NCBI GenBank assembly: GCA_041663005.1
Contig: JBAZRK010000001.1
Span: 93,360 to 157,359, forward strand
Length of the DNA: 64,000 bases
Direction: 5' to 3'
DNA from: Minisyncoccota bacterium
GTDB lineage: Bacteria > Patescibacteriota > Minisyncoccia > Phycocordibacterales > UBA9973
The notes beneath the pieces were generated by a model. The model searched no databases, was not told the DNA's origin, and saw nothing but the letters and a program-made list of their open reading frames with translations. Numbering within the stretch: the stretch's first letter is position 1; every line of letters begins with the position of its first letter. Shown piece by piece: positions 14,039 to 53,560 of the stretch. A program made the position numbers and the translations under genes.

Positions 14039-15313
14039 ATGGACCAAAAACGAATAAAGAACTTTGAGAACTTGGCAACGACCGAAAATCGCAAATTGGC
14101 TTTACTCGTGGCGGAGGCGGGGCTCGACGCTCTGGATACCGGTCGGGTTATTGCAAGCTCAGTTACTCTAAATGGTAATATTTTACAAATACAAGGAGAA
14201 AGTTTTGATTTGTCTAAGTTTAAAAATATTAAAGTTGTAGGTTTCGGCAAGGCATCTTGTACAGCTGCGCTTGCCCTAGAGAAGATTCTAGGTTCACGGA
14301 TAGGCGGCGGGGCGGTTATCGGTTTAGAAAAAAATAAATGTGAATACGTTGAAACTTTTGCTGGAACGCATCCGAAACCTTCTGCTCCAAACATACTGGC
14401 GGGGCAGAAGATTTTCGAATTGGTTAAAAATTCTACAATAGACGATTTGATTATTGCGCTTGTGTCTGGGGGTGGGTCCGCGCTTCTTTGTAGCTCTGCC
14501 AAGGAGAGCGAGCAGGGTATAAAGCTGTATGAATCCTTTTTAAAGACAGGTAAAACTATCAGTGTTTTGAATACTGTCAGGAAGCACTTATCTATCCTTA
14601 AGGGTGGAGGATTGGCCGAGATTGCTTACCCAGCAACAGTTATCGGTCTAATTTTCTCAGATGTACCTGGAGATAATTTTGGTGATGTTGCTTCCGGTCC
14701 TACCTATAAAGATGTCTCTACCGTAGCGGATGCGGAAAAAATAATAGCCGATAATAACCTTGGGGATTTTGATTTAATGGAAACACCAAAGGACGATAAA
14801 TATTTTGAAAAAGTTCATAATTTCGTTTTGGTTTCTAATAAAACCGCCTCAGATGTTATGGTGCTGAAGGCGCGCGAGCTGGGGCTCGACGCAGAAATTA
14901 TTTCCACAGAACTTTACGAAGAGACTCACTTAGCGCTCGATAAGATATTTTCAGCGGAGAAGGAAAATACAGTAATTATCGCTGCAGGAGAACCCAAAAT
15001 GAAGGTAGCAGAACGCCATGGTAAAGGTGGGCGTAGTCTGCATATGGCTTTAATGGCGCTCAATAATAAAAAAATAAATGCAGACTCTGTTTTCATAACA
15101 CTTGCGTCGGACGGCCTAGACAACAGCGATGCTGCGGGGGCAATAGTGGATGCAACTACATTTGAAAAAATGAAAAAGCTAGACCTAGAGTGCGAGAACT
15201 ACCTAAACGGATTTAACTCTTATCCGTTTTTTGCAAAAACTGGAGATATGATAATGACTGGTCCAACAGGCGCAAACGTTGCCGACCTGATGATTCTTTT
15301 AAATAAAAAATAA
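14039..15313 (+). CDS. glycerate 2-kinase (MOFRL/GckA family)
   Basis: VGFGKAS ... ALVSGGGSALL ... GEPKMKV pattern typical of the MOFRL-family glycerate kinases that I recall. Confidence 0.6.
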   Translation: MDQKRIKNFENLATTENRKLALLVAEAGLDALDTGRVIASSVTLNGNILQIQGESFDLSKFKNIKVVGFGKASCTAALALEKILGSRIGGGAVIGLEKNKCEYVETFAGTHPKPSAPNILAGQKIFELVKNSTIDDLIIALVSGGGSALLCSSAKESEQGIKLYESFLKTGKTISVLNTVRKHLSILKGGGLAEIAYPATVIGLIFSDVPGDNFGDVASGPTYKDVSTVADAEKIIADNNLGDFDLMETPKDDKYFEKVHNFVLVSNKTASDVMVLKARELGLDAEIISTELYEETHLALDKIFSAEKENTVIIAAGEPKMKVAERHGKGGRSLHMALMALNNKKINADSVFITLASDGLDNSDAAGAIVDATTFEKMKKLDLECENYLNGFNSYPFFAKTGDMIMTGPTGANVADLMILLNKK

Positions 15314-32669: not shown

Positions 32670-32975
32670 ATGATCATTTTGGTCTTGAGGGGGGAAGTGG
32701 CGATGTCTCGCACGGTCGTGGAAATTCTGCAGGGGGTGGATATCCGCCTCTCTATTTCAGGGGATTGGTTGGACAGAATGCATCACCAGGATGCGCTCAT
32801 CAACCAAAAAATCGTCGTGAGCCCCAACAACATAGCTTACCCCCGCCTGTTTGTGGCACAGGGAGGGGTTACGGAGTTTGCCGCGTATGCGGTAACCGAC
32901 ACGATGGCCCGGCAGGCCATCGAGCTCAACAGTGCCCTCGCCAAGCGAGCGAGGTTGCAGGAGGCAGAGAGATGA
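32670..32975 (+). CDS. hypothetical protein (101 aa), cassette 3 gene 1
   Basis: GGGAGG RBS and GC3-biased codons. Confidence 0.45.
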   Translation: MIILVLRGEVAMSRTVVEILQGVDIRLSISGDWLDRMHHQDALINQKIVVSPNNIAYPRLFVAQGGVTEFAAYAVTDTMARQAIELNSALAKRARLQEAER

Positions 32976-33229
32976 AGAAGGTCACCATCAGCGGAGTTTC
33001 CCGGCAGCTTGCCATCGGCGCGCTCGAGCTCATCCTTGACCTCGTCCCCGGCGCAACGTCCGTCGCGTGGGGGGACGACAAGGTCGTCGTCGTCACCGAC
33101 GACGTCGAAGTCGAGGCTCTGGCAACCCTCGCCGTGGCATACGGTGAGGACGAGGGGCTCTCCATCGAAGAGATCGAAGAGATCCTCCCGCCGCGGCCGT
33201 ATGTGCCCTCCGACGCCCCGCACTGCTAG
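32972..33229 (+). CDS. hypothetical acidic protein (85 aa), translationally coupled to 32670
   Basis: ATGA start/stop overlap at 32972-32975. The product has D/E/V-rich tracts (VVVVTDDVEVEAL). Confidence 0.45.
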   Translation: MKKVTISGVSRQLAIGALELILDLVPGATSVAWGDDKVVVVTDDVEVEALATLAVAYGEDEGLSIEEIEEILPPRPYVPSDAPHC

Positions 33230-33244
33230 TGCGGGGCCGCGGAA

Positions 33245-33385
33245 CCCCGCCGTGACGTTTGTTAGGTCACGGCGGGGGAGGCCAAGTTCTTTCAACAAAT
33301 TTTTTTTCTTTTCCCCGAACCCGGTTTCCGAGGTTCGTATCAAGAGCCTCAATGGAAATCCTTTGCGGCTCTTTTCAATTCTAAT
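33245..33385. repeat. cassette-end module copy 3
   Basis: Identical 33-nt palindrome plus GAGGCCAAGTTC. Then hairpin CGAACC-...-GGTTCG, then AGAGCC...GGCTCT followed by TTTC. Confidence 0.6.
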
Positions 33386-33471
33386 TTCTTTTCTTATTGA
33401 TTTAAATTAAAAATTTTGTATTATGAAATCGGCTAGTACCCTCGCAAGAGGCTAAGCCGGGAGGGCATTCG

Positions 33472-33690
33472 ATGACCAAGACGGTTGAAGTAGCTCCCGA
33501 GCAGTTTCCCGACCCGCACAATGTGCGGGAAAACGCGCTGAACGCGCTGTCGGCTTCGCCGACACCTCAGGCCGTGCGTGGCCACCTGCCTCGCCGGGAG
33601 AGGAGGGCGGTTCATCGGGAACTCGTCTACACGAGTGACCGGCAGCAGCCCCACCCGGATCTCCACGATCCGGGAAGACTCCCGAAGTAG
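33472..33690 (+). CDS. hypothetical small protein (72 aa)
   Basis: GGGAGGG RBS before the ATG, GC-rich. Confidence 0.35.
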   Translation: MTKTVEVAPEQFPDPHNVRENALNALSASPTPQAVRGHLPRRERRAVHRELVYTSDRQQPHPDLHDPGRLPK

Positions 33691-33743
33691 AGACCATCGC
33701 GGCGAGAGTCCTAACCTCTCGTCGCACCCTTAACACCGAAACA

Positions 33744-33805: not shown

Positions 33806-33877
33806 GGCCCTATCGTCTAACGGTTAGGACATCGGCTTTTCAAGCCGGTAATCCGGGTTCGATTCCCGGTAGGGTCA
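33806..33877 (+). tRNA. tRNA-Glu (anticodon TTC)
   Basis: Acceptor GGCCCTA/TAGGGTC, anticodon stem TCGGC/GCCGG with loop TTTTCAA, T-arm CCGGG-TTCGATT-CCCGG. Confidence 0.85.
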
Positions 33878-35528
33878 CAGACAAGGATTTTTTATCCTGA
33901 AATTCGTCATATAGCTTGTAAGGTATAGATAGTTTTGGTGTTCCATTAAGTAATTCAGTATATGTTGGCAACTCATCAAAAACCAACCCATAAAATGCTC
34001 TTAAAAGAGTAAGATTCTTTTGTTTTATAAGGTATTCTTCTGGGTGTGCCATTAAGTTTTTTACATATCCTACAAAAGAGTGGACATCGTTCTCCTGAAC
34101 CTCAATTCCGTTTCTTTGCTCTCTGGTTTCTTCTATGCGTTGATGAAGTTTATTAATCTCTTTTTCAAGTTCTGCTCGTATAATTTCATTTGTTGTAGAA
34201 GTAAACGCATTAATCTTTTGTGTTTTCTCAAAATCAAGTTCTGCTACAGTTGTTCCCACTTTAACAGAAAACTCACCAAGTTCTTTTTCTTTCTCTCTAA
34301 ATTTATTTATCAGTGTTGCTTCAAGGGCTTTCAAAAAGCTTTTGTCTACGTGCTTTAATTTTTCTATGCAGACAGCAAGACCATCTTCAAATTCTTTCTT
34401 TGAAACTCTATATTGCTTGTGATTCCTAGCACAATGATATGCTGGAAAACTCTTGCCAGATTTACCAGTAGATGCACTACCTAAAAATGGTTTTTGACAT
34501 TCAGGGCACAACACAACTTCTTTAAAAGGATATAGGGGATTATCTTTCATTCGTTTTAACTGATGTGGGTTATAATCTTTATGTATCAAAATAGTTCCAT
34601 CCTTTTTCTCTTCAATAAAAAAATTGCCTTTATTTGCTCTGTTGTATTCGTCTATGCTCACCAACCCCTTGTAGTTAGTCCTAATAGGCGTTTTTAGCCA
34701 CTTTTCAGTATTAATTCCTGCATAGATGGGTCTTTGTATTATTTTCTGTAATTGCTTCACTGTAAGCTTTACACCGCCTCTCGAACCCAATATTTTATCT
34801 TTTGACCTTGACCACCTGTTTTGTTTCTTCGAACGATATCCAATAGCATTTATGTGGTCAACAATCTGCTGGTCTGTGTAAATGCCCGAAGCTCTCATTT
34901 CAAACATAGTAATAAAAAAGTGGGCTCGTTTAGGGTCTGAAACTTGAATCATTTTTTTCTTACCCTCAACGTAAATTCTTTCATTTACGAAACCATCATT
35001 TTCTTGCCTAACTTTATACCCTTCTCTTACTAAAGTTGCTTCTGCTCCAATCATTCTAGTAAGAATTTGATTAACTTCAATTTTACCTTGTTGAGCCATA
35101 ACAAGTTCTGTAATTTCACTAGGGCGTGTGATACTCCAGTCATATTCGAGACCAAGGTGTTCAAGAGTATTTTTTGTGGGCTGTATGATACCGTTAGAAT
35201 CAATTAATTGAACACCGTAATCAGCTAGTCGCTTTTTTAGACTTTCATACCCAAGAGTTCCATTTCTTGTAAAACGGTCTATGGAACGAAATATAATAAC
35301 ATCAACTTTTTTGGGAGACTTTTTTATAAAAGAAATAATGTCTTCAATAACAGGTCTGTCGTCTTTTCTACCAGAAAGTTGTTCCTTGAATGTTTTTAAA
35401 ACATCGAGTTTAAATTTTTCAGCAACACCGAGACAGATTTTTTCTTGCACTTCAAGACTTTCACCTTCTTGGGCTTGCTTTGCGGAACTAACTCGGCAAT
35501 AAATAATACAATTCTTATTTTCTTTCAT
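33840..35528 (-). CDS. large serine recombinase (resolvase/invertase catalytic domain plus recombinase domain plus zinc-ribbon/coiled-coil)
   Basis: N-terminal CIIYCRVSSAKQ contains the catalytic Ser motif. DRFTRN is present. 562 aa with C-terminal CPEC...C...HC. The last 38 nt are antisense to the tRNA-Glu 3' half. Confidence 0.85.
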   Translation of the reverse strand: MKENKNCIIYCRVSSAKQAQEGESLEVQEKICLGVAEKFKLDVLKTFKEQLSGRKDDRPVIEDIISFIKKSPKKVDVIIFRSIDRFTRNGTLGYESLKKRLADYGVQLIDSNGIIQPTKNTLEHLGLEYDWSITRPSEITELVMAQQGKIEVNQILTRMIGAEATLVREGYKVRQENDGFVNERIYVEGKKKMIQVSDPKRAHFFITMFEMRASGIYTDQQIVDHINAIGYRSKKQNRWSRSKDKILGSRGGVKLTVKQLQKIIQRPIYAGINTEKWLKTPIRTNYKGLVSIDEYNRANKGNFFIEEKKDGTILIHKDYNPHQLKRMKDNPLYPFKEVVLCPECQKPFLGSASTGKSGKSFPAYHCARNHKQYRVSKKEFEDGLAVCIEKLKHVDKSFLKALEATLINKFREKEKELGEFSVKVGTTVAELDFEKTQKINAFTSTTNEIIRAELEKEINKLHQRIEETREQRNGIEVQENDVHSFVGYVKNLMAHPEEYLIKQKNLTLLRAFYGLVFDELPTYTELLNGTPKLSIPYKLYDEFQDKKSLSVTLPGIEPGLPA

Positions 35529-35814
35529 ATACCAATTTATTGTTGAATGGGCTAATTATAACATTTTTTTCCTCAATTTTTTCACGCCACATAACATAAA
35601 ATGCTTCAGCTAAATCATCTTGTATTTGTCTAGCTTTAATAATCTCTTCTTCTGATAAACCAATATCATCTACATCTCCTAATGCTTTTTTATATTCTTC
35701 AAGTCCTATCATCCAATACTTTATTCTAATAAAAACCTTGCAAATAAGCTTCAGCTCTATTGTTAAAATTAATAAAAAAACCTTTTCCAGAAGAAAAAGA
35801 TTTACGACAAGCAT
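35515..35814 (-). CDS. small hypothetical protein upstream of the recombinase, overlapping it by 14 nt (possible regulator or directionality factor)
   Basis: The ORF overlaps the recombinase start. The acidic product has no recognisable HTH. Confidence 0.3.
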   Translation of the reverse strand: MLVVNLFLLEKVFLLILTIELKLICKVFIRIKYWMIGLEEYKKALGDVDDIGLSEEEIIKARQIQDDLAEAFYVMWREKIEEKNVIISPFNNKLVYERK

Positions 35815-35959
35815 CCTTCCCTTTAGGGGTTTTGGCTAGCACCGTTGCCACTCGACTGGCTGGTTGCTGGGCGGATTAACGAGCCAAAACTCTACCGCCT
35901 CTCCTGATACTGATATTTAATTTTACTTACCTAATAAGGATAGCACGGTTCTAAAACTG

Positions 35960-36165
35960 ACCCTGTAAAACTGTGGACAACTTTTTTAAGCTATATAATA
36001 CAAGGTTCTCAAAGAGTCGGAAAATTACCCCTATGAGTGCAAAAACCCCTAAGGATATATGCCCGCTAAAGAGTGCGAAAAGTCCTTTCCTCCTACTATC
36101 GTAGTTGTCTATAAACTCCTTCAAAGAGTGTAAAAACTCCCTCCCAAGGCGTGTAAAAACTCCAA
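35960..36165. repeat. iteron-like direct repeat array (consensus GAGTGYRAAAASYCC, plus two TAAAACTG units)
   Basis: Copies at about 36014, 36035, 36071, 36126 and 36149, with TAAAACTG at 35966 and 35981. Spacings are irregular (21-55 nt). Confidence 0.5.
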
Positions 36166-36649
36166 ATTTGCCTTTTAACGGTGATTTGTTATAAACTCTA
36201 CTTACAACTGAATAGTGAGCGTATCCAGAGCGAGGCGAGAGATTGGACTCAATGACCCTCCAACAACCTACCCAAAGGGCAAGGTGCTATCCACCAAGAT
36301 GACAGAAATGTTGTCGGGAAAGATGCAAAGGTCGAACATTTTTCCTCATTATTAGAGGAAATTTTTATTTTATGGAAGTAGTTAAATTAAGTATTAGACT
36401 TGGTCGTGATTCTTTCCAATATAATTCGGAAGTTCTTAGAAAGAATGGAAAATTTTACTATCGTGCAAATGGTGCAATCATAAAAATAACACCAATTGAG
36501 GCAAGATGTGTTATAAGAAACCCACGTCTTTACTATTTCTCTATTGCCTTGAAACTACACTTATTGATTAACAAAAAGCTTAAATCTTGATAGTATTAGC
36601 TTACAAGTAAATAAGAGACCTAACTCTTAAAGATTTTCTTTAAGATATG

Positions 36650-36795
36650 GTCGAAAGACCCATAGAAGATACTGAACCCCACGTGTTCAGCAACCTTCTA
36701 TGGGCTATACAGGGAAACTTGTATAGGGTCGCAAGACCTAGCTGGCGTGGGGTTCTGTGTTTATACCACGCTAGCTATTATCAGCTAGCTTTTTA
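36650..36795 (+). ncRNA. candidate structured RNA or cis-regulatory leader (uncharacterised)
   Basis: Nested perfect helices: CCCATAGAAG/CTTCTATGGG, CTGAAC/GTTCAG, CTATACA/TGTATAG, GNRA-capped GGTC-GAAA-GACC and GGTC-GCAA-GACC. A long-range 10-bp pairing GAACCCCACG/CGTGGGGTTC suggests a pseudoknot. Confidence 0.3.
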
Positions 36796-36799
36796 TTTT

Positions 36800-37033
36800 A
36801 TGAAAAAAGAAACAATAATGAGTCAGGTAATAATACTAGTTTTGGGGCTTACTTTAATTTTTATTCTGAGAGAGTTTCTAACAGATAAAATTATAGTGGA
36901 AGCTATGAGAGTTCAAGTAGAAACAATGGCAAGTAGAGCTGGATGTTTTGCTAACGCAAGAGAAAAAAATATTAATGATGGCGATTGCACGAGCATAGAT
37001 ATAACTGCTTACAAACTTTATCCTAAATATTAA
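36800..37033 (+). CDS. small membrane protein (77 aa)
   Basis: Start reassigned to MKKETIM. One TM helix (VIILVLGLTLIFIL). Sits immediately downstream of the structured region. Confidence 0.4.
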   Translation: MKKETIMSQVIILVLGLTLIFILREFLTDKIIVEAMRVQVETMASRAGCFANAREKNINDGDCTSIDITAYKLYPKY

Positions 37034-37043
37034 TTATAAATTT

Positions 37044-37688
37044 ATGAAAAAACATCTCACAATTTTGTTTCTCACAGTATTAATAATACCTTCTATCGCT
37101 TCTGCAACTTGGTGGAATCCACTTAGCTGGTCAAAAAATTCCAAGCAAATAGATACCATTGAACCAACATCAACTAAGCCAGTTGAAAAATCTATTCCTG
37201 TATCTGAAACTAAAACCACTGAATCAAAAGTTGTTGAAAGAATAGTAGAAAAACCAACAATCCAAACAATAACCGTGCAAGACCCCGCACTTCAAGCGAG
37301 GGTAAATATTCTTGTGGCGGAAAATGAATCTTTAAAAGCCCAAGTTGGTAGACTCCTTGAATCCAACAAATCACTCAATAAAGAATTATTGGCTTGTGAA
37401 GATACCCCAGCATCTACTTTTTCTGCTGATGACCAATGTGAGTATGCCCAAGATTCTCTAAAAGATTTTCTTGAACAGTATACCGAGTTAAGTGCTGAAA
37501 TAAGTAAGGAGCGAGAGAAAATAAAGAAAAACCCTGAAAGTGCCGAGAAACCTTACATAGATATTTATCATCGTTCTGGATTGAATGCTATGCTCAGTAG
37601 TTTCAATATTTCATCAAGTCAAAAACTCAAACCCCTTATTAAGGGAAAGGAATCTGCTGAATCAGCAGTAGCACTCTATTGCAACTAA
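37044..37688 (+). CDS. secreted coiled-coil protein of unknown function
   Basis: Signal peptide MKKHLTILFLTVLIIPSIASA, then a T/K/E-rich linker, then a coiled coil (LVAENESLKAQVGRLLESNKSLNKELL). Confidence 0.55.
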   Translation: MKKHLTILFLTVLIIPSIASATWWNPLSWSKNSKQIDTIEPTSTKPVEKSIPVSETKTTESKVVERIVEKPTIQTITVQDPALQARVNILVAENESLKAQVGRLLESNKSLNKELLACEDTPASTFSADDQCEYAQDSLKDFLEQYTELSAEISKEREKIKKNPESAEKPYIDIYHRSGLNAMLSSFNISSSQKLKPLIKGKESAESAVALYCN

Positions 37689-37869
37689 AGACCTAGAACT
37701 CTCTTCCTGTGGCATCGTAGAGCTTCCAGAACCTTGTCAGAATCTTGCCATCCGTTTTTTAAAGTATCCTAATTTTCAACGTTTTGGTTTTTGAGGACTG
37801 ATAAGGTAGTGTTAATAGTAAAGTGTCGGAAAATTCTCGTAAACCGTGTAGAAGTATTATACTTAAGTA

Positions 37870-40679: not shown

Positions 40680-41642
40680 ATGATAAAAATTACACTTGAT
40701 ACAAATTGCGTTATAAACCTACTTAACTTTAATGCTGAAACACCTACTTCTGTAGATGAACTTTCCGAAATTATAAAATATGGGCTTGATAGTAATGCTA
40801 ATATCGCTATTACAACCAGAGTTGAAAGCGAATGTGAAGGAGACAAAAATAAAGAACGCAGTAAGGAAATGATACGTAAGATACAAATGTTGCCTGTAAT
40901 TGGCACAGTTGCACGTTGGAATACCTCAAAATGGGATGGCGGTGATGTTTGGGGAGGTCAGGAACACGAAAAGTTGTCTGATGAACTTACAAAAATAATT
41001 TTTCCAGCTCTAAAAAAAGAAGATGCTCACTATAAAAATAAGATAAATGATATTGACCATCTCGTAGGGCACATTATTAATAAAAGAGACATATTTGTAA
41101 CCGATGATGCACAGATTCTTAAAAAATCTGAGACACTTAAAGCAAGTCTCAATTTAACAGTGATGAGTCCAAAACAAGCCCTAGAGTATCTAAATTCTAG
41201 AGGTGATAAAACAATCCTAGTCCAAGATTTTTATGATAAGTTTCTAGAACAGAAAAAATTAATCTTAAAATTTCTCACATCTGAAAAAGATTTGGAACTG
41301 CTCGATAAGTATGAAGAAAATCGTCAATGGTTAATCCGTAAATACCCCAACATTAAAGATGGATTGGGAGATTTTAAAGTGCAACAGATGTCAGTTCCAA
41401 TGGGCGGACAAAGAGCCTTTACTCAAATTGATATTGTTTCTTTGCAGTTCTTTAATAAAAAACTAAATGCCTTGTTGGTGGAAAGAAATCCTCTGAATAT
41501 TCCAGATATTATATCTAATAATCCCGATAGCTACGCTGTCGTTTATTTAAGTGAAGAAGAGAAACTAGGTAAAACCATCAGTTTCTTAAATAAAATAGAG
41601 GATTTACTACTTGGATACTTAGGAAAATTAGAAGGAAAATAA
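40680..41642 (+). CDS. PIN-domain protein with a roughly 150-aa C-terminal extension (operon gene C)
   Basis: N-terminal IKITLDTNCVINLL contains the first PIN Asp. RDIFVTDDAQIL matches the fourth acidic motif. Confidence 0.6.
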   Translation: MIKITLDTNCVINLLNFNAETPTSVDELSEIIKYGLDSNANIAITTRVESECEGDKNKERSKEMIRKIQMLPVIGTVARWNTSKWDGGDVWGGQEHEKLSDELTKIIFPALKKEDAHYKNKINDIDHLVGHIINKRDIFVTDDAQILKKSETLKASLNLTVMSPKQALEYLNSRGDKTILVQDFYDKFLEQKKLILKFLTSEKDLELLDKYEENRQWLIRKYPNIKDGLGDFKVQQMSVPMGGQRAFTQIDIVSLQFFNKKLNALLVERNPLNIPDIISNNPDSYAVVYLSEEEKLGKTISFLNKIEDLLLGYLGKLEGK

Positions 41643-42271
41643 TGACCTCAATTAAAGTCTTAAAGAAAAGGTTCGAAGAAGTTACCAATGCTGTCTCTCG
41701 GTTGGTTGATGATAGATATTTTTTCCTTGAATATAAGAAATACCTCGAAGAACACCCGAATATTGATAAAAATAACGAATTTTTATATTTTATAGGTTTA
41801 AATTATGTAGAAACCACTTGTTTGGGGATATTCCGTCAGGTTGACCGCAATCCAAAATCTCAAAGCCTATTAAACATACTAAAGACTATACAAAAAGAAC
41901 ACGAATCTTTTACTCTTGGATTCTTTTGTAGAAAATACAGAAGAAGTAATGCAGGCTTAGGTAATGGAATAAAAGATTTTTCTCAGTTTGCTCTTAAAGA
42001 TGGTAAAAAAATAAGTCCTAAAAAAGTTAAATCCGATATATTGGCTCTTATAAAAATAACCAAACCCATTGTTAAATATAGACACAAATTTGTAGCTCAC
42101 AGAAATATAAGGAAGGTCACAATAAACGTGAAAATGAATGACTTATACACGGTAATTGATTTTTTAGAGAAAATGGTGAGTAAATATCAGCTCCTTATCA
42201 ATCAAGCAGGAATGCCTTCGTTACGTGCAGGAAATTCGCATCCTAATCTGCAAGCCGTCTTTAAAGAATAA
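41642..42271 (+). CDS. putative HEPN-like protein (operon gene D)
   Basis: TAATG overlap with gene C. YRHKFVAHRN contains an R-x5-H match. The assignment is tentative. Confidence 0.45.
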   Translation: MTSIKVLKKRFEEVTNAVSRLVDDRYFFLEYKKYLEEHPNIDKNNEFLYFIGLNYVETTCLGIFRQVDRNPKSQSLLNILKTIQKEHESFTLGFFCRKYRRSNAGLGNGIKDFSQFALKDGKKISPKKVKSDILALIKITKPIVKYRHKFVAHRNIRKVTINVKMNDLYTVIDFLEKMVSKYQLLINQAGMPSLRAGNSHPNLQAVFKE

Positions 42272-51848: not shown

Positions 51849-53541
51849 TTTTTCTCTTCGGTCCAGAATAGTGGTATTTTGTATCATACTGTTTTCGGGC
51901 GCGCTTCTAACGAAGCTTTTTTGGGTGCAGGTGGTCCACGGCGACTATTATTCCGGTGAGGCGGACAGACAGTACGTGACTCCGTCCACGGACATTTACG
52001 AAAGAGGCACGATTTATTTCCAGCGTAAAGATGGCGAGCTAATCTCGGCAGCAACGCAGGTGTCGGGCTTCAAACTGGCTGTGAATCCTGTGAAGATTGC
52101 GAATGCGGAAGATGCGTATGAGAAAATAAATAAAATATTTCCACTTGAACGCGCAGATTTTATCGCCAAGGCCGCTAAATCGAACGACCCTTACGAAGAA
52201 GTTGGTTCTCGCTTAACTAAAGAGGAAGCGGACAAAGTCTCGGGGCTCAAGATAGCAGGGGTGAGCGTTTTTAAGGAAAAGTGGCGTTTTTACGCCGGAG
52301 AAAGTTTGGCTTCGCACGTGCTGGGGTTCGTAGGCTTCAAGGGGGACGAGCTGGGCGGCCGTTATGGACTTGAGCGACAATATGATTCTCTCCTTTCACG
52401 CGGAGTGAACGAGCCGTATGTAAATTTCTTCGCGGAAGTTTTTTCAAATATTAAAAAAAGTTTAAATGAAGATAACAAGGAAGGGGATATAATAACAACG
52501 ATTGAACCTCAAGTGCAAGCCTTTCTTGAAAGCAAACTTGACGAAGTTAGATTGAAATACCCCGTTGATAGTATCGGCGGTATCATTATGAACCCTAAAG
52601 ACGGTTCCATATACGCTATGGCGGCGATGCCAGATTTTGACCCGAACAAATTTTCAGAAGCGGAAAACAATTTTGTTTTTACCAATCCGTTGGTAGAAAA
52701 TGTACTAGAATTTGGCTCCGTGGTTAAGCCTCTGGTTATGGCCGGAGCGCTAGACGCCGGAGTGGTGACCGCCAAGACAACTTACACCGACACGGGCTCG
52801 GTGATAGTGGAGAAAAAGGAAATATTCAATTTCGATAAAAAGGGTCGCGGTCCGGGTACAACGATGCAGGATGTTTTAAACCAATCCCTAAACACCGGAA
52901 TGGTTTTCGTTGAGAAAAAGTTAGGGAAGGAAAAAATGAAAAATTACCTTTTAGGTTTCGGCATCCGAGATAAAACAGACATAGACCTGCCCAATGAAAC
53001 CAGTGGACTTGTCTCAGGAATTTTAAATAGCCCTCGTGAAATAGAGTATGCGAACGCTGCTTTTGGACAGGGAATCGCTTTAACACCCATAGAGCTTGTC
53101 CGGGCGCTGGCTTCACTCGGGAACGGTGGTTTACTGGTAAAGCCTCACGTAGTGGATAAAATAAAATACAGCGATGGCACGGAGAAAAAAATGACTTATC
53201 CATCTACGGCTACTAATATTACGGCTGCTACTTCCGAGGAAATCACGCGAATGCTTGTAACCGTTATGGATAAGGGTGTTGGAAAACCGCTTGAGCATTT
53301 TAGTGTTGCAGTGAAGACGGGTACGGCGCAAGTTGCGGATAATGTTTCTGGCGGATATTATAAGGACAAGCATACGCATTCTTTTGTCGGTTACTTCCCG
53401 GCGTATGACCCACAGTTTATAATTCTCTTGTATGCAGTAAATCCAACTGGTACACCGTATGCGGTTACGACCTGGGGTGATCCATTTCTTGACACTACCA
53501 AGTTTCTCTTAAATTATTATAATATTCCGCCCGACAGATAA
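51838..53541 (+). CDS. ftsI: penicillin-binding protein transpeptidase (FtsI/PBP2 class B)
   Basis: N-terminal TM anchor. Motifs SVVKP (SxxK), SLNTG (SxN) and KTGTA (KTG). Confidence 0.8.
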   Translation: MKSSFSLRSRIVVFCIILFSGALLTKLFWVQVVHGDYYSGEADRQYVTPSTDIYERGTIYFQRKDGELISAATQVSGFKLAVNPVKIANAEDAYEKINKIFPLERADFIAKAAKSNDPYEEVGSRLTKEEADKVSGLKIAGVSVFKEKWRFYAGESLASHVLGFVGFKGDELGGRYGLERQYDSLLSRGVNEPYVNFFAEVFSNIKKSLNEDNKEGDIITTIEPQVQAFLESKLDEVRLKYPVDSIGGIIMNPKDGSIYAMAAMPDFDPNKFSEAENNFVFTNPLVENVLEFGSVVKPLVMAGALDAGVVTAKTTYTDTGSVIVEKKEIFNFDKKGRGPGTTMQDVLNQSLNTGMVFVEKKLGKEKMKNYLLGFGIRDKTDIDLPNETSGLVSGILNSPREIEYANAAFGQGIALTPIELVRALASLGNGGLLVKPHVVDKIKYSDGTEKKMTYPSTATNITAATSEEITRMLVTVMDKGVGKPLEHFSVAVKTGTAQVADNVSGGYYKDKHTHSFVGYFPAYDPQFIILLYAVNPTGTPYAVTTWGDPFLDTTKFLLNYYNIPPDR

Positions 53542-53560
53542 TTACCCACAAGTCCGACTT

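Follow-up and report, generated by a model that had tools for sequence, protein, structure and literature searches.

The repeat array next to the serine recombinase gene of this island is made of six copies of a short site, all on one strand, which are non-random and non-coding, keep their position and orientation in several lineages and recur at a second promoter of the same island. Our preferred reading, in which we place about half of our confidence, is that these copies are binding sites for a putative regulator, in other words a cluster of operator or activator sites lying between two divergent promoters, each of which leads into a predicted SAM-I riboswitch. The array and the back-to-back riboswitches may act as two layers of one switch, through which the SAM level of the cell would govern excision of the island as well as expression of the small basic protein p72 and of the LOOT RNA, and we consider this more likely than a replication origin, which was among the proposals of the initial annotation of the window (the whole stretch of 64 kb that was analysed). 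Taken alone, the array is of modest novelty, adding one to the cis-regulatory repeat clusters of mobile elements; what surprises is its setting between paired riboswitches.

The five copies of about 15 nt described in the initial annotation are all present, with two amendments: the first of them is a variant form, and a sixth had been missed. The 15-mer GAGTGYRAAAASYCC is matched exactly by unit 2 (GAGTGCAAAAACCCC, 36035-36049, 20.7 bits), unit 3 (GAGTGCGAAAAGTCC, 36071-36085, 21.9 bits) and unit 5 (GAGTGTAAAAACTCC, 36126-36140, 21.1 bits), and with one mismatch (GCGTG...) by the promoter-proximal unit 6 (GCGTGTAAAAACTCC, 36149-36163), which ends 4 bp before the -35 element of the right promoter. 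Unit 1 (GAGTCGGAAAATTACCCC, 36014-36031) needs an indel to be read as the 15-mer and fits the wider family consensus of the 15-bp units, GAGTSNRAAAAYTCC, at 17.9 bits of the family position weight matrix (PWM); its counterpart in the closest related island, L034, is GAGTCCGAAAACTCC. The sixth copy, unit 4 (GTTGTCTATAAACTCC, 36104-36119, 14.5 bits), is degenerate and has a direct counterpart, GTTGTCTGAAAACTCC, in L034, with the same left flank, tatcgtaGTTGTCT. All six units are on the + strand, and dyad symmetry is absent from them. The array thus holds four same-strand matches in 150 nt, against a maximum cluster of one in 300 first-order Markov simulations of the window, and outside it GAGTGYRAAAASYCC is matched at up to two mismatches only once on both strands of the 64 kb, at 15188; this PWM match was dismissed because it lies inside an ORF. 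The spacings had been given as an irregular 21-55 nt, from which no helical phasing was claimed. With the sixth copy counted, the start-to-start spacings are 21, 36, 34, 21 and 23 bp, and over all the arrays that we found 9 of 13 neighbouring intervals measure 21-23 bp, about two helical turns, so that the earlier judgement was too pessimistic. The array sits in a non-coding gap of 560 nt, and the suggestion that the region might belong to a real ORF in relatives is not borne out, as no ORF that spans the array is shared by the window and L034. With a GC content of about 40%, compared with 26-33% in the flanks, the array region is less AT-rich than the DNA around it. No Rfam family matches it on either strand, and with folding z-scores of about -1.9 for each strand, no RNA structure is detectable and a structured RNA is not supported.

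Two divergent promoters, called from consensus and conservation, appear to flank the array. The right one (36168-36195, + strand) would consist of a -35 element TTGCCT, a 16 bp spacer and the extended -10 element TGtTATAAA. Its -10 element and leader (36183-36220) form 38 nt that are identical in L034, the leader TACAAYTRAATA is kept in all relatives, and the placement of unit 6 relative to AAATTTGCCT is also identical in L034. The left promoter (35937-35945, - strand) is recognised by an extended -10 element TGcTATCCT, whose counterparts are TGcTATGCT in L034, TGcTATGAT in L035, TGcTATAAT in L108 and TGtTATAAT in L114. About 220 bp separate the two -10 elements, and the array occupies that space. 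Transcription is predicted to start 10-20 nt ahead of each aptamer, which would leave the array in untranscribed space between the promoters.

Left of the array, the initial annotation had correctly noted two TAAAACTG units and an AT-rich TATATAAT. The former (35952-35959 and 35966-35973, + strand) are duplicated at a spacing of 14 bp within the -35/spacer zone of the left promoter, a feature specific to the window and absent from L034 and L035. The latter (35992-35999) is part of a conserved box, TAAGCTATATAAT (35987-35999, no strand assigned), which also stands left of the first unit in L034 and L115 and takes variant forms in L108 and L117. Beside them is a DnaA-box-like sequence, TTGTCCACA (35972-35980, - strand), that matches 8 of 9 positions and is replaced at the same place in L034 and L035 by a perfect TTATCCACA (9/9). 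Because this sequence is present in L035, which has no array, and missing from L108, L114 and L115, which have one, it seems to belong with the left promoter and not with the array. Elsewhere in the window, four near-consensus DnaA boxes within 400 nt (53151-53550) were considered as oriC and set aside: they lie inside a penicillin-binding-protein (FtsI-like) gene and are probably there by chance.

The relatives are labelled Saccharibacteria, Nomurabacteria and Paceibacterota, which makes a CPR (Patescibacteria) bacterium the probable host of the island. They answer the question of whether the repeats might fail to be conserved in homologous islands: they are kept in L034 and its identical counterpart from another sample (L119), in the L108 family, and in L114, L115 and L117. 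In L034 (recombinase 78% identical) the whole control region aligns with that of the window at 73% identity and holds both aptamers and five same-orientation units; the unit cores are kept, while the spacers have diverged and the order of units is rearranged. The proximal unit lies 4 bp from the -35 element there, as in the window, and 5 bp from it in L115. The same promoter is preceded by two units in the L108 family, by a clear and a degenerate one in L114, and by exactly one in L115, whose contig carries the entire inter-promoter region. L035 (recombinase 76% identical) has both aptamers about 140 nt apart and no unit at all, so that copy number across the window and its sister elements runs 6, 5, 2, 1 and 0. 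Four further islands, L030-L033, have recombinases that are 60-71% identical, the 65-aa ORF that adjoins the recombinase gene, LOOT in three of the four, and neither aptamers nor array. In L117 a homologous array, including a ttcctcctatatcgt spacer, is found in another divergent intergenic region, before an HTH_31-like gene. In every lineage all units are co-oriented with the downstream gene, and preserved cores with diverged spacers are also seen when the window is compared with L108, L114, L115 and L117.

What these elements share is limited. The array-bearing ones have only p72, the recombinase and LOOT in common, and both the one-unit L115 and the zero-unit L035 retain p72, LOOT and a SAM aptamer (L035 also the recombinase); the closest p72 loci share the order aptamer, p72, LOOT. 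The protein p72 itself occurs without an array in L035, L039-L044 and distant loci, and no comparable direct repeats were found upstream of the distant p72 loci. No homologue of the 84-aa and 54-aa proteins of L108/L114, or of the HTH-like protein of L117, is encoded in the window. Among viral and plasmid sequences, a scan of IMG/VR for two units with a variable gap gave 29 matches, all unrelated low-complexity or other repeats; neither the recombinase query nor the p72 profile retrieved a relative from viral contigs, phage and plasmid records gave no BLAST match to the control region as a whole, and tblastn with p72 was likewise negative in phage records. As a separate observation, L108 (2760-3240) and L114 (1167-1650) carry a non-coding hairpin leader of about 480 nt between the left promoter and the 84-aa gene, in which no SAM aptamer is detectable and which may hold another RNA element.

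The same site is found once more within the island of the window. A solitary unit, GTGTCGGAAAATTCT (37823-37837, + strand), reaches 18.2 bits with a PWM whose training set did not include it; on the two strands of the window, no other site outside the array attains 16 bits. It lies between genes, with a -10-like TATTAT box 17 bp further on and the start (37870) of a 533-aa gene 32 nt further on.

Both inferred promoters lead into predicted SAM-I (S-box) aptamers, and these two matches explain the long-range inverted repeats of the region. The left aptamer (35808-35913, - strand) is a full-length match to RF00162 at 41.3 bits (E=1.5e-7). The right one (36218-36326, + strand) scores 37.8 bits; the Rfam alignment stops at 36312, and we infer that the aptamer continues to about 36326, through a long P4 (36296-36319) and the GAUGC that forms the 3' strand of P1 (36321-36325). 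Rfam covers its orthologues over 111-114 nt (L034, 39.5 bits over 111 nt; L035, 46.2 bits over 114 nt). The aptamers come from a permissive Rfam scan, and both window scores are just under the RF00162 gathering score of 44.4 bits. Orthologous aptamers score above it: L035 (53.5 left, 46.2 right), L115 (51.7), L042 (50.0), L117 (47.8) and L066 (58.2). ViennaRNA folds place a terminator hairpin with a U-run after the left aptamer (35772-35803, - strand), whose GTCGTRAATCTTTTTC is kept in L034, L035, L108, L114 and L115, and another (UUUCCUC/GAGGAAA and a U-run; 36341-36371, + strand) directly before the start codon of p72. The 5' halves of these terminators can alternatively pair with the 3' part of the aptamer as antiterminators (GGGAAGGAU/AUCUUUUUC and GGGAAAGAUG/CAUUUUUCC), a predicted layout that corresponds to the classical S-box OFF design. 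Comparison of the aptamers relied on nhmmer and Rfam; a joint MAFFT/RNAalifold model of six of them, from an alignment that is not structural, did not recover the S-box fold. The divergent SAM-I pair is confined to the window, L034/L119 and L035, the left riboswitch preceding the 65-aa ORF and the serine recombinase and the right one p72 and LOOT.

The island is of low GC content, spans about 33.8 to 43.0 kb and sits at a tRNA-Glu. Its recombinase is a large serine recombinase of 562 aa (33840-35528, - strand; Pfam Resolvase, Recombinase and Zn_ribbon_recom) whose 3' end overlaps the tRNA-Glu (33806-33878). This overlap implies that the attachment site lies within the tRNA and the end of the recombinase gene; a direct repeat of the tRNA-Glu was sought at the other end of the island and not found, as expected for a serine recombinase. 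The same overlap of a recombinase 3' end with a tRNA on the opposite strand is seen in L030, L031, L032, L035 and L108. Beside the integration site, two blocks of 60-68% GC (32670-33700) stand out in a genome of about 35-40% GC; they contain small ORFs followed by GC-rich hairpins, have no Rfam match and look like foreign DNA from a high-GC organism. Overlapping the start of the recombinase is an acidic ORF of 65 aa (35515-35712, - strand, pI 4.6), kept upstream of the recombinase in L030 and L032-L036, whose product is a candidate directionality factor or cofactor.

On the other side, the first gene behind the right promoter encodes p72 (36372-36590, + strand), a strongly basic protein of 72 aa and pI 10.3. 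The ORF is open in relatives at 51-54% identity, and a profile built on it collected 71 metagenome loci and 218 homologous proteins. Its AF2 model (pLDDT 92.8) shows a four-stranded beta-meander and two helices, with no fold match in PDB or BFVD, no sequence match in PDB and no Pfam family. LOOT (RF03000; 36617-36739, + strand) is full length at 81.2 bits, for a gathering score of 46.4, is followed by a terminator (36770-36789), and also stands after the p72 gene in L034, L035, L108, L115 and L117. It is regular in recombinase-bearing islands (the window, L030, L031, L033-L035, L042, L108, L115 and L117). A 128-aa ORF at 36647-37033 was rejected as an artefact, as its first part translates the LOOT RNA and its terminator; the same LOOT-derived pseudo-peptide starts a called 337-aa gene in L108. 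Within the 3' end of the p72 ORF lies a promoter-like TTAACA-17-TGaTAGTAT (36568-36596). LOOT is followed by a 214-aa protein with a signal-peptide-like N-terminus (37044-37688), and homologues in the same position in L115 (72%), L108, L035, L031 and L032 indicate that the conserved right-hand operon continues past LOOT. Further cargo differs between islands: a PDC-M11A-like protein and an AbiU2 HEPN protein in the window (40680-42271), SMODS/SLATT in L035, a 667-aa protein in L034 and a GP3_package terminase-like gene in L108. A conserved control module is therefore carrying variable defence-type cargo.

Under the regulator reading, a predicted sequence-specific DNA-binding protein would bind the units as monomers or head-to-tail multimers, at sites that would lie roughly on one face of the helix because most are 21-23 bp apart. 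As the last site abuts the -35 element of the right promoter, occupancy would set the initiation of RNA polymerase there, and possibly also at the left promoter, 60-90 bp away. The SAM-I riboswitch after each promoter would add a second layer, in which the terminator should form with SAM bound. The left unit under this control would comprise the 65-aa ORF and the serine recombinase, and the right unit p72, the LOOT RNA and the secreted 214-aa protein. Conserved position and orientation, recurrence as a single site at another promoter and as an array at a further one, a copy number that runs from 6 to 0 and a spacing of mostly 21-23 bp are all expected of sites for a transcription regulator. 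An operator cluster was already one of the options in the initial annotation, and it gains from the proximal unit 4 bp before the -35 element, from the constant orientation and from the extra site at 37823 before the next gene. Binding of a protein by the units, and a regulatory effect of that binding, are what we deduce from this arrangement. Several findings count against it. The island of the window encodes no recognisable DNA-binding regulator; the lack of dyad symmetry in the units would be unusual for classical dimeric repressors; the distance from unit to -10 element varies (17, 26, 26, 28, 30 and 37-40 bp); the recombinase lineage does not predict the array, which L034 (78%) has and L035 (76%) lacks; and the conserved TATAAT-containing box upstream raises the possibility that the array is transcribed. 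As to the protein, p72 is a candidate, being the only element-encoded one that accompanies every array, with a host factor just as possible; against p72 stand its lack of a known DNA-binding fold and its presence at many array-less loci.

The alternatives take up the same features in other ways. As an iteron-type origin, the array would be bound by an initiator, TATATAAT would melt, the DnaA-like box would recruit the DnaA of the host and the excised island would be an episome. The repeats do have the common orientation and the modal 21-23 bp spacing of plasmid iterons, they adjoin a 13-bp AT-rich box and the DnaA-like sequence (perfect in L034 and L035), and the island has a recombinase and is presumably excisable. 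Even so, we regard an origin as improbable. Pfam, PADLOC and PHROGs identified no Rep, primase, helicase, HTH, RHH, ParA or ParB among the island proteins, in agreement with the remark in the initial annotation that no rep gene is recognisable, nor is there a Rep among the few genes that array-bearing elements share; the units dwindle to one in L115 and none in L035 with the rest of the module kept; the DnaA-like box seems to track the left promoter; the region is GC-richer than its flanks; and a solitary unit at a second promoter, like the second-site array of L117, would make no sense in an origin. The origin reading is not supported, and neither is the proposed partition site, for which the island offers no ParA, ParB or ribbon-helix-helix family protein. 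A role at the RNA level also seems unlikely to us. It would require a third promoter, with the TAAGCNATATAAT box as its -10, to transcribe the array rightwards, so that GAGUGYRAAAACUCC repeats could function within a small RNA or a long leader, for instance as targets of an RNA-binding protein such as the basic p72. All array lineages do have a TATAAT-containing box, 8-25 nt to the left of their first unit, the units share the orientation of the downstream gene as an RNA signal would, and p72 is strongly basic and adjoins another RNA, LOOT. The box, however, has neither a -35 element nor an extended -10 TG in any lineage, the folding z-scores are unremarkable and no Rfam family matches, and about half of the units do not keep the 4-bp GAGU/ACUC self-complementarity and show no compensating changes; moreover, the 37823 site and the proximal unit are both upstream of promoters.

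We give still less credence, and indeed very little, to the idea that the units are accessory or autoregulatory sites of the neighbouring serine recombinase, as in the res sites of Tn3/gamma-delta, which are found between divergent genes and bind resolvase, even though the divergent promoter region that holds the array is upstream of the recombinase operon and a recombinase is found in every array-bearing element with a known flank. According to a published account, two short sites of about 40-50 bp suffice for large serine integrases, which require no accessory sites (PMC12286644). Here the tRNA-Glu end, 2.2 kb off, carries the attachment site; the units are direct repeats and not inverted pairs, with no res-type subsites that include a crossover site; L035, whose recombinase is equally close, has no array; and further units lie far from the recombinase gene, at 37823 and in the L117 array. 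Finally, the repeats could be functionless local duplications, or a pac-type packaging site for a helper phage, and this pair of explanations we consider quite unlikely. Duplication and loss would account for the different order of units in the window and L034 and for the varying copy number, and the L108 relative has a GP3_package small-terminase-like gene. Against duplication, the unit cores are kept while the spacers diverge, and position and orientation relative to the promoter are conserved although p72 is only 52-73% identical; against packaging, the island of the window has no terminase-like gene.

The array belongs to a compact conserved module made of a promoter pair, two S-box riboswitches, a serine recombinase, p72 and the LOOT RNA, which supplies a genomic context for LOOT. 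The association of p72 with SAM sensing extends beyond these islands. Distant p72-domain genes (L054, L059, L068, L094, L096 and L099) lie 0.2-1.7 kb downstream of SAM-I/IV riboswitches (RF01725, 52-66 bits), with DUF3293, an Enc34-type ssDNA-binding protein and a GmrSD/Schlafen nuclease as neighbours, which suggests that the link between SAM sensing and the p72 family is old and spans two riboswitch classes. That p72 stands behind SAM-I or SAM-I/IV in phage-like or defence-like neighbourhoods points to an unrecognised SAM-responsive function of mobile elements. In L122-L124 (L042 lineage), we also observed a SAM-I riboswitch and p72 after an AlwI-type restriction system with two methyltransferases. 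Our literature search found no paper on SAM riboswitches before a recombinase operon or an orphan small RNA, and none describing SAM riboswitches on elements of Patescibacteria. To our knowledge, almost no genetic tools exist for Patescibacteria. The 15-bp site could lead to the first characterised transcription regulator or promoter architecture in this group, and if the origin reading were true, CPR genetics would gain a replicon from the array. According to a 2024 review, no natural plasmids are known from the Patescibacteria phylum (PMC11665869).

Comparison with known systems places the array closest to several kinds of site. The iterons of theta plasmids (pSC101, P1, F, R6K, RK2) are direct repeats of 17-22 bp that work with a Rep protein. 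Like them, our units share one orientation, are about two helical turns apart, and stand upstream of a promoter with an AT-rich stretch and a DnaA-box-like sequence as neighbours. Unlike them, the core is 15 bp and no Rep gene is nearby, some sister elements have only 1 copy or 0, the site recurs singly elsewhere, and the DnaA-like box does not co-vary with the array. The res sites of Tn3/gamma-delta, which double as operators, likewise place multiple sites in a divergent promoter region upstream of a serine recombinase gene; their subsites are inverted pairs that include the crossover site, whereas the enzyme here belongs to the large serine integrases and its att site lies at the tRNA end. 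With LytTR/OmpR activator sites the array shares a periodicity of about 21 bp just upstream of the -35 element and a fixed orientation to the promoter, but those sites are usually paired, in contrast to the five or six units found here, their motif is unrelated, and no response regulator is encoded near the array.

Operators of mobile elements include the heptads of the omega repressor (pSM19035), the dispersed operators of P1 C1 and the direct repeats of P2 C. As in these systems, the sites of our array are non-palindromic, occur singly or in same-orientation arrays, differ in copy number between promoters of one element and lie at or upstream of the -35 element; they have no sequence similarity to them, and no ribbon-helix-helix or HTH regulator was identified in the island. 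We know of no characterised regulator of this kind in the CPR phylum. For the second layer, the comparison is with SAM-I (RF00162), whose full-length four-helix aptamer and classical OFF-type terminator/antiterminator platforms are also predicted here. What sets the present pair apart from the usual SAM-I riboswitch is its setting, as two predicted copies, scoring just below the gathering threshold, stand back to back before the recombinase and p72-LOOT operons of a mobile island rather than before genes of methionine/SAM metabolism.
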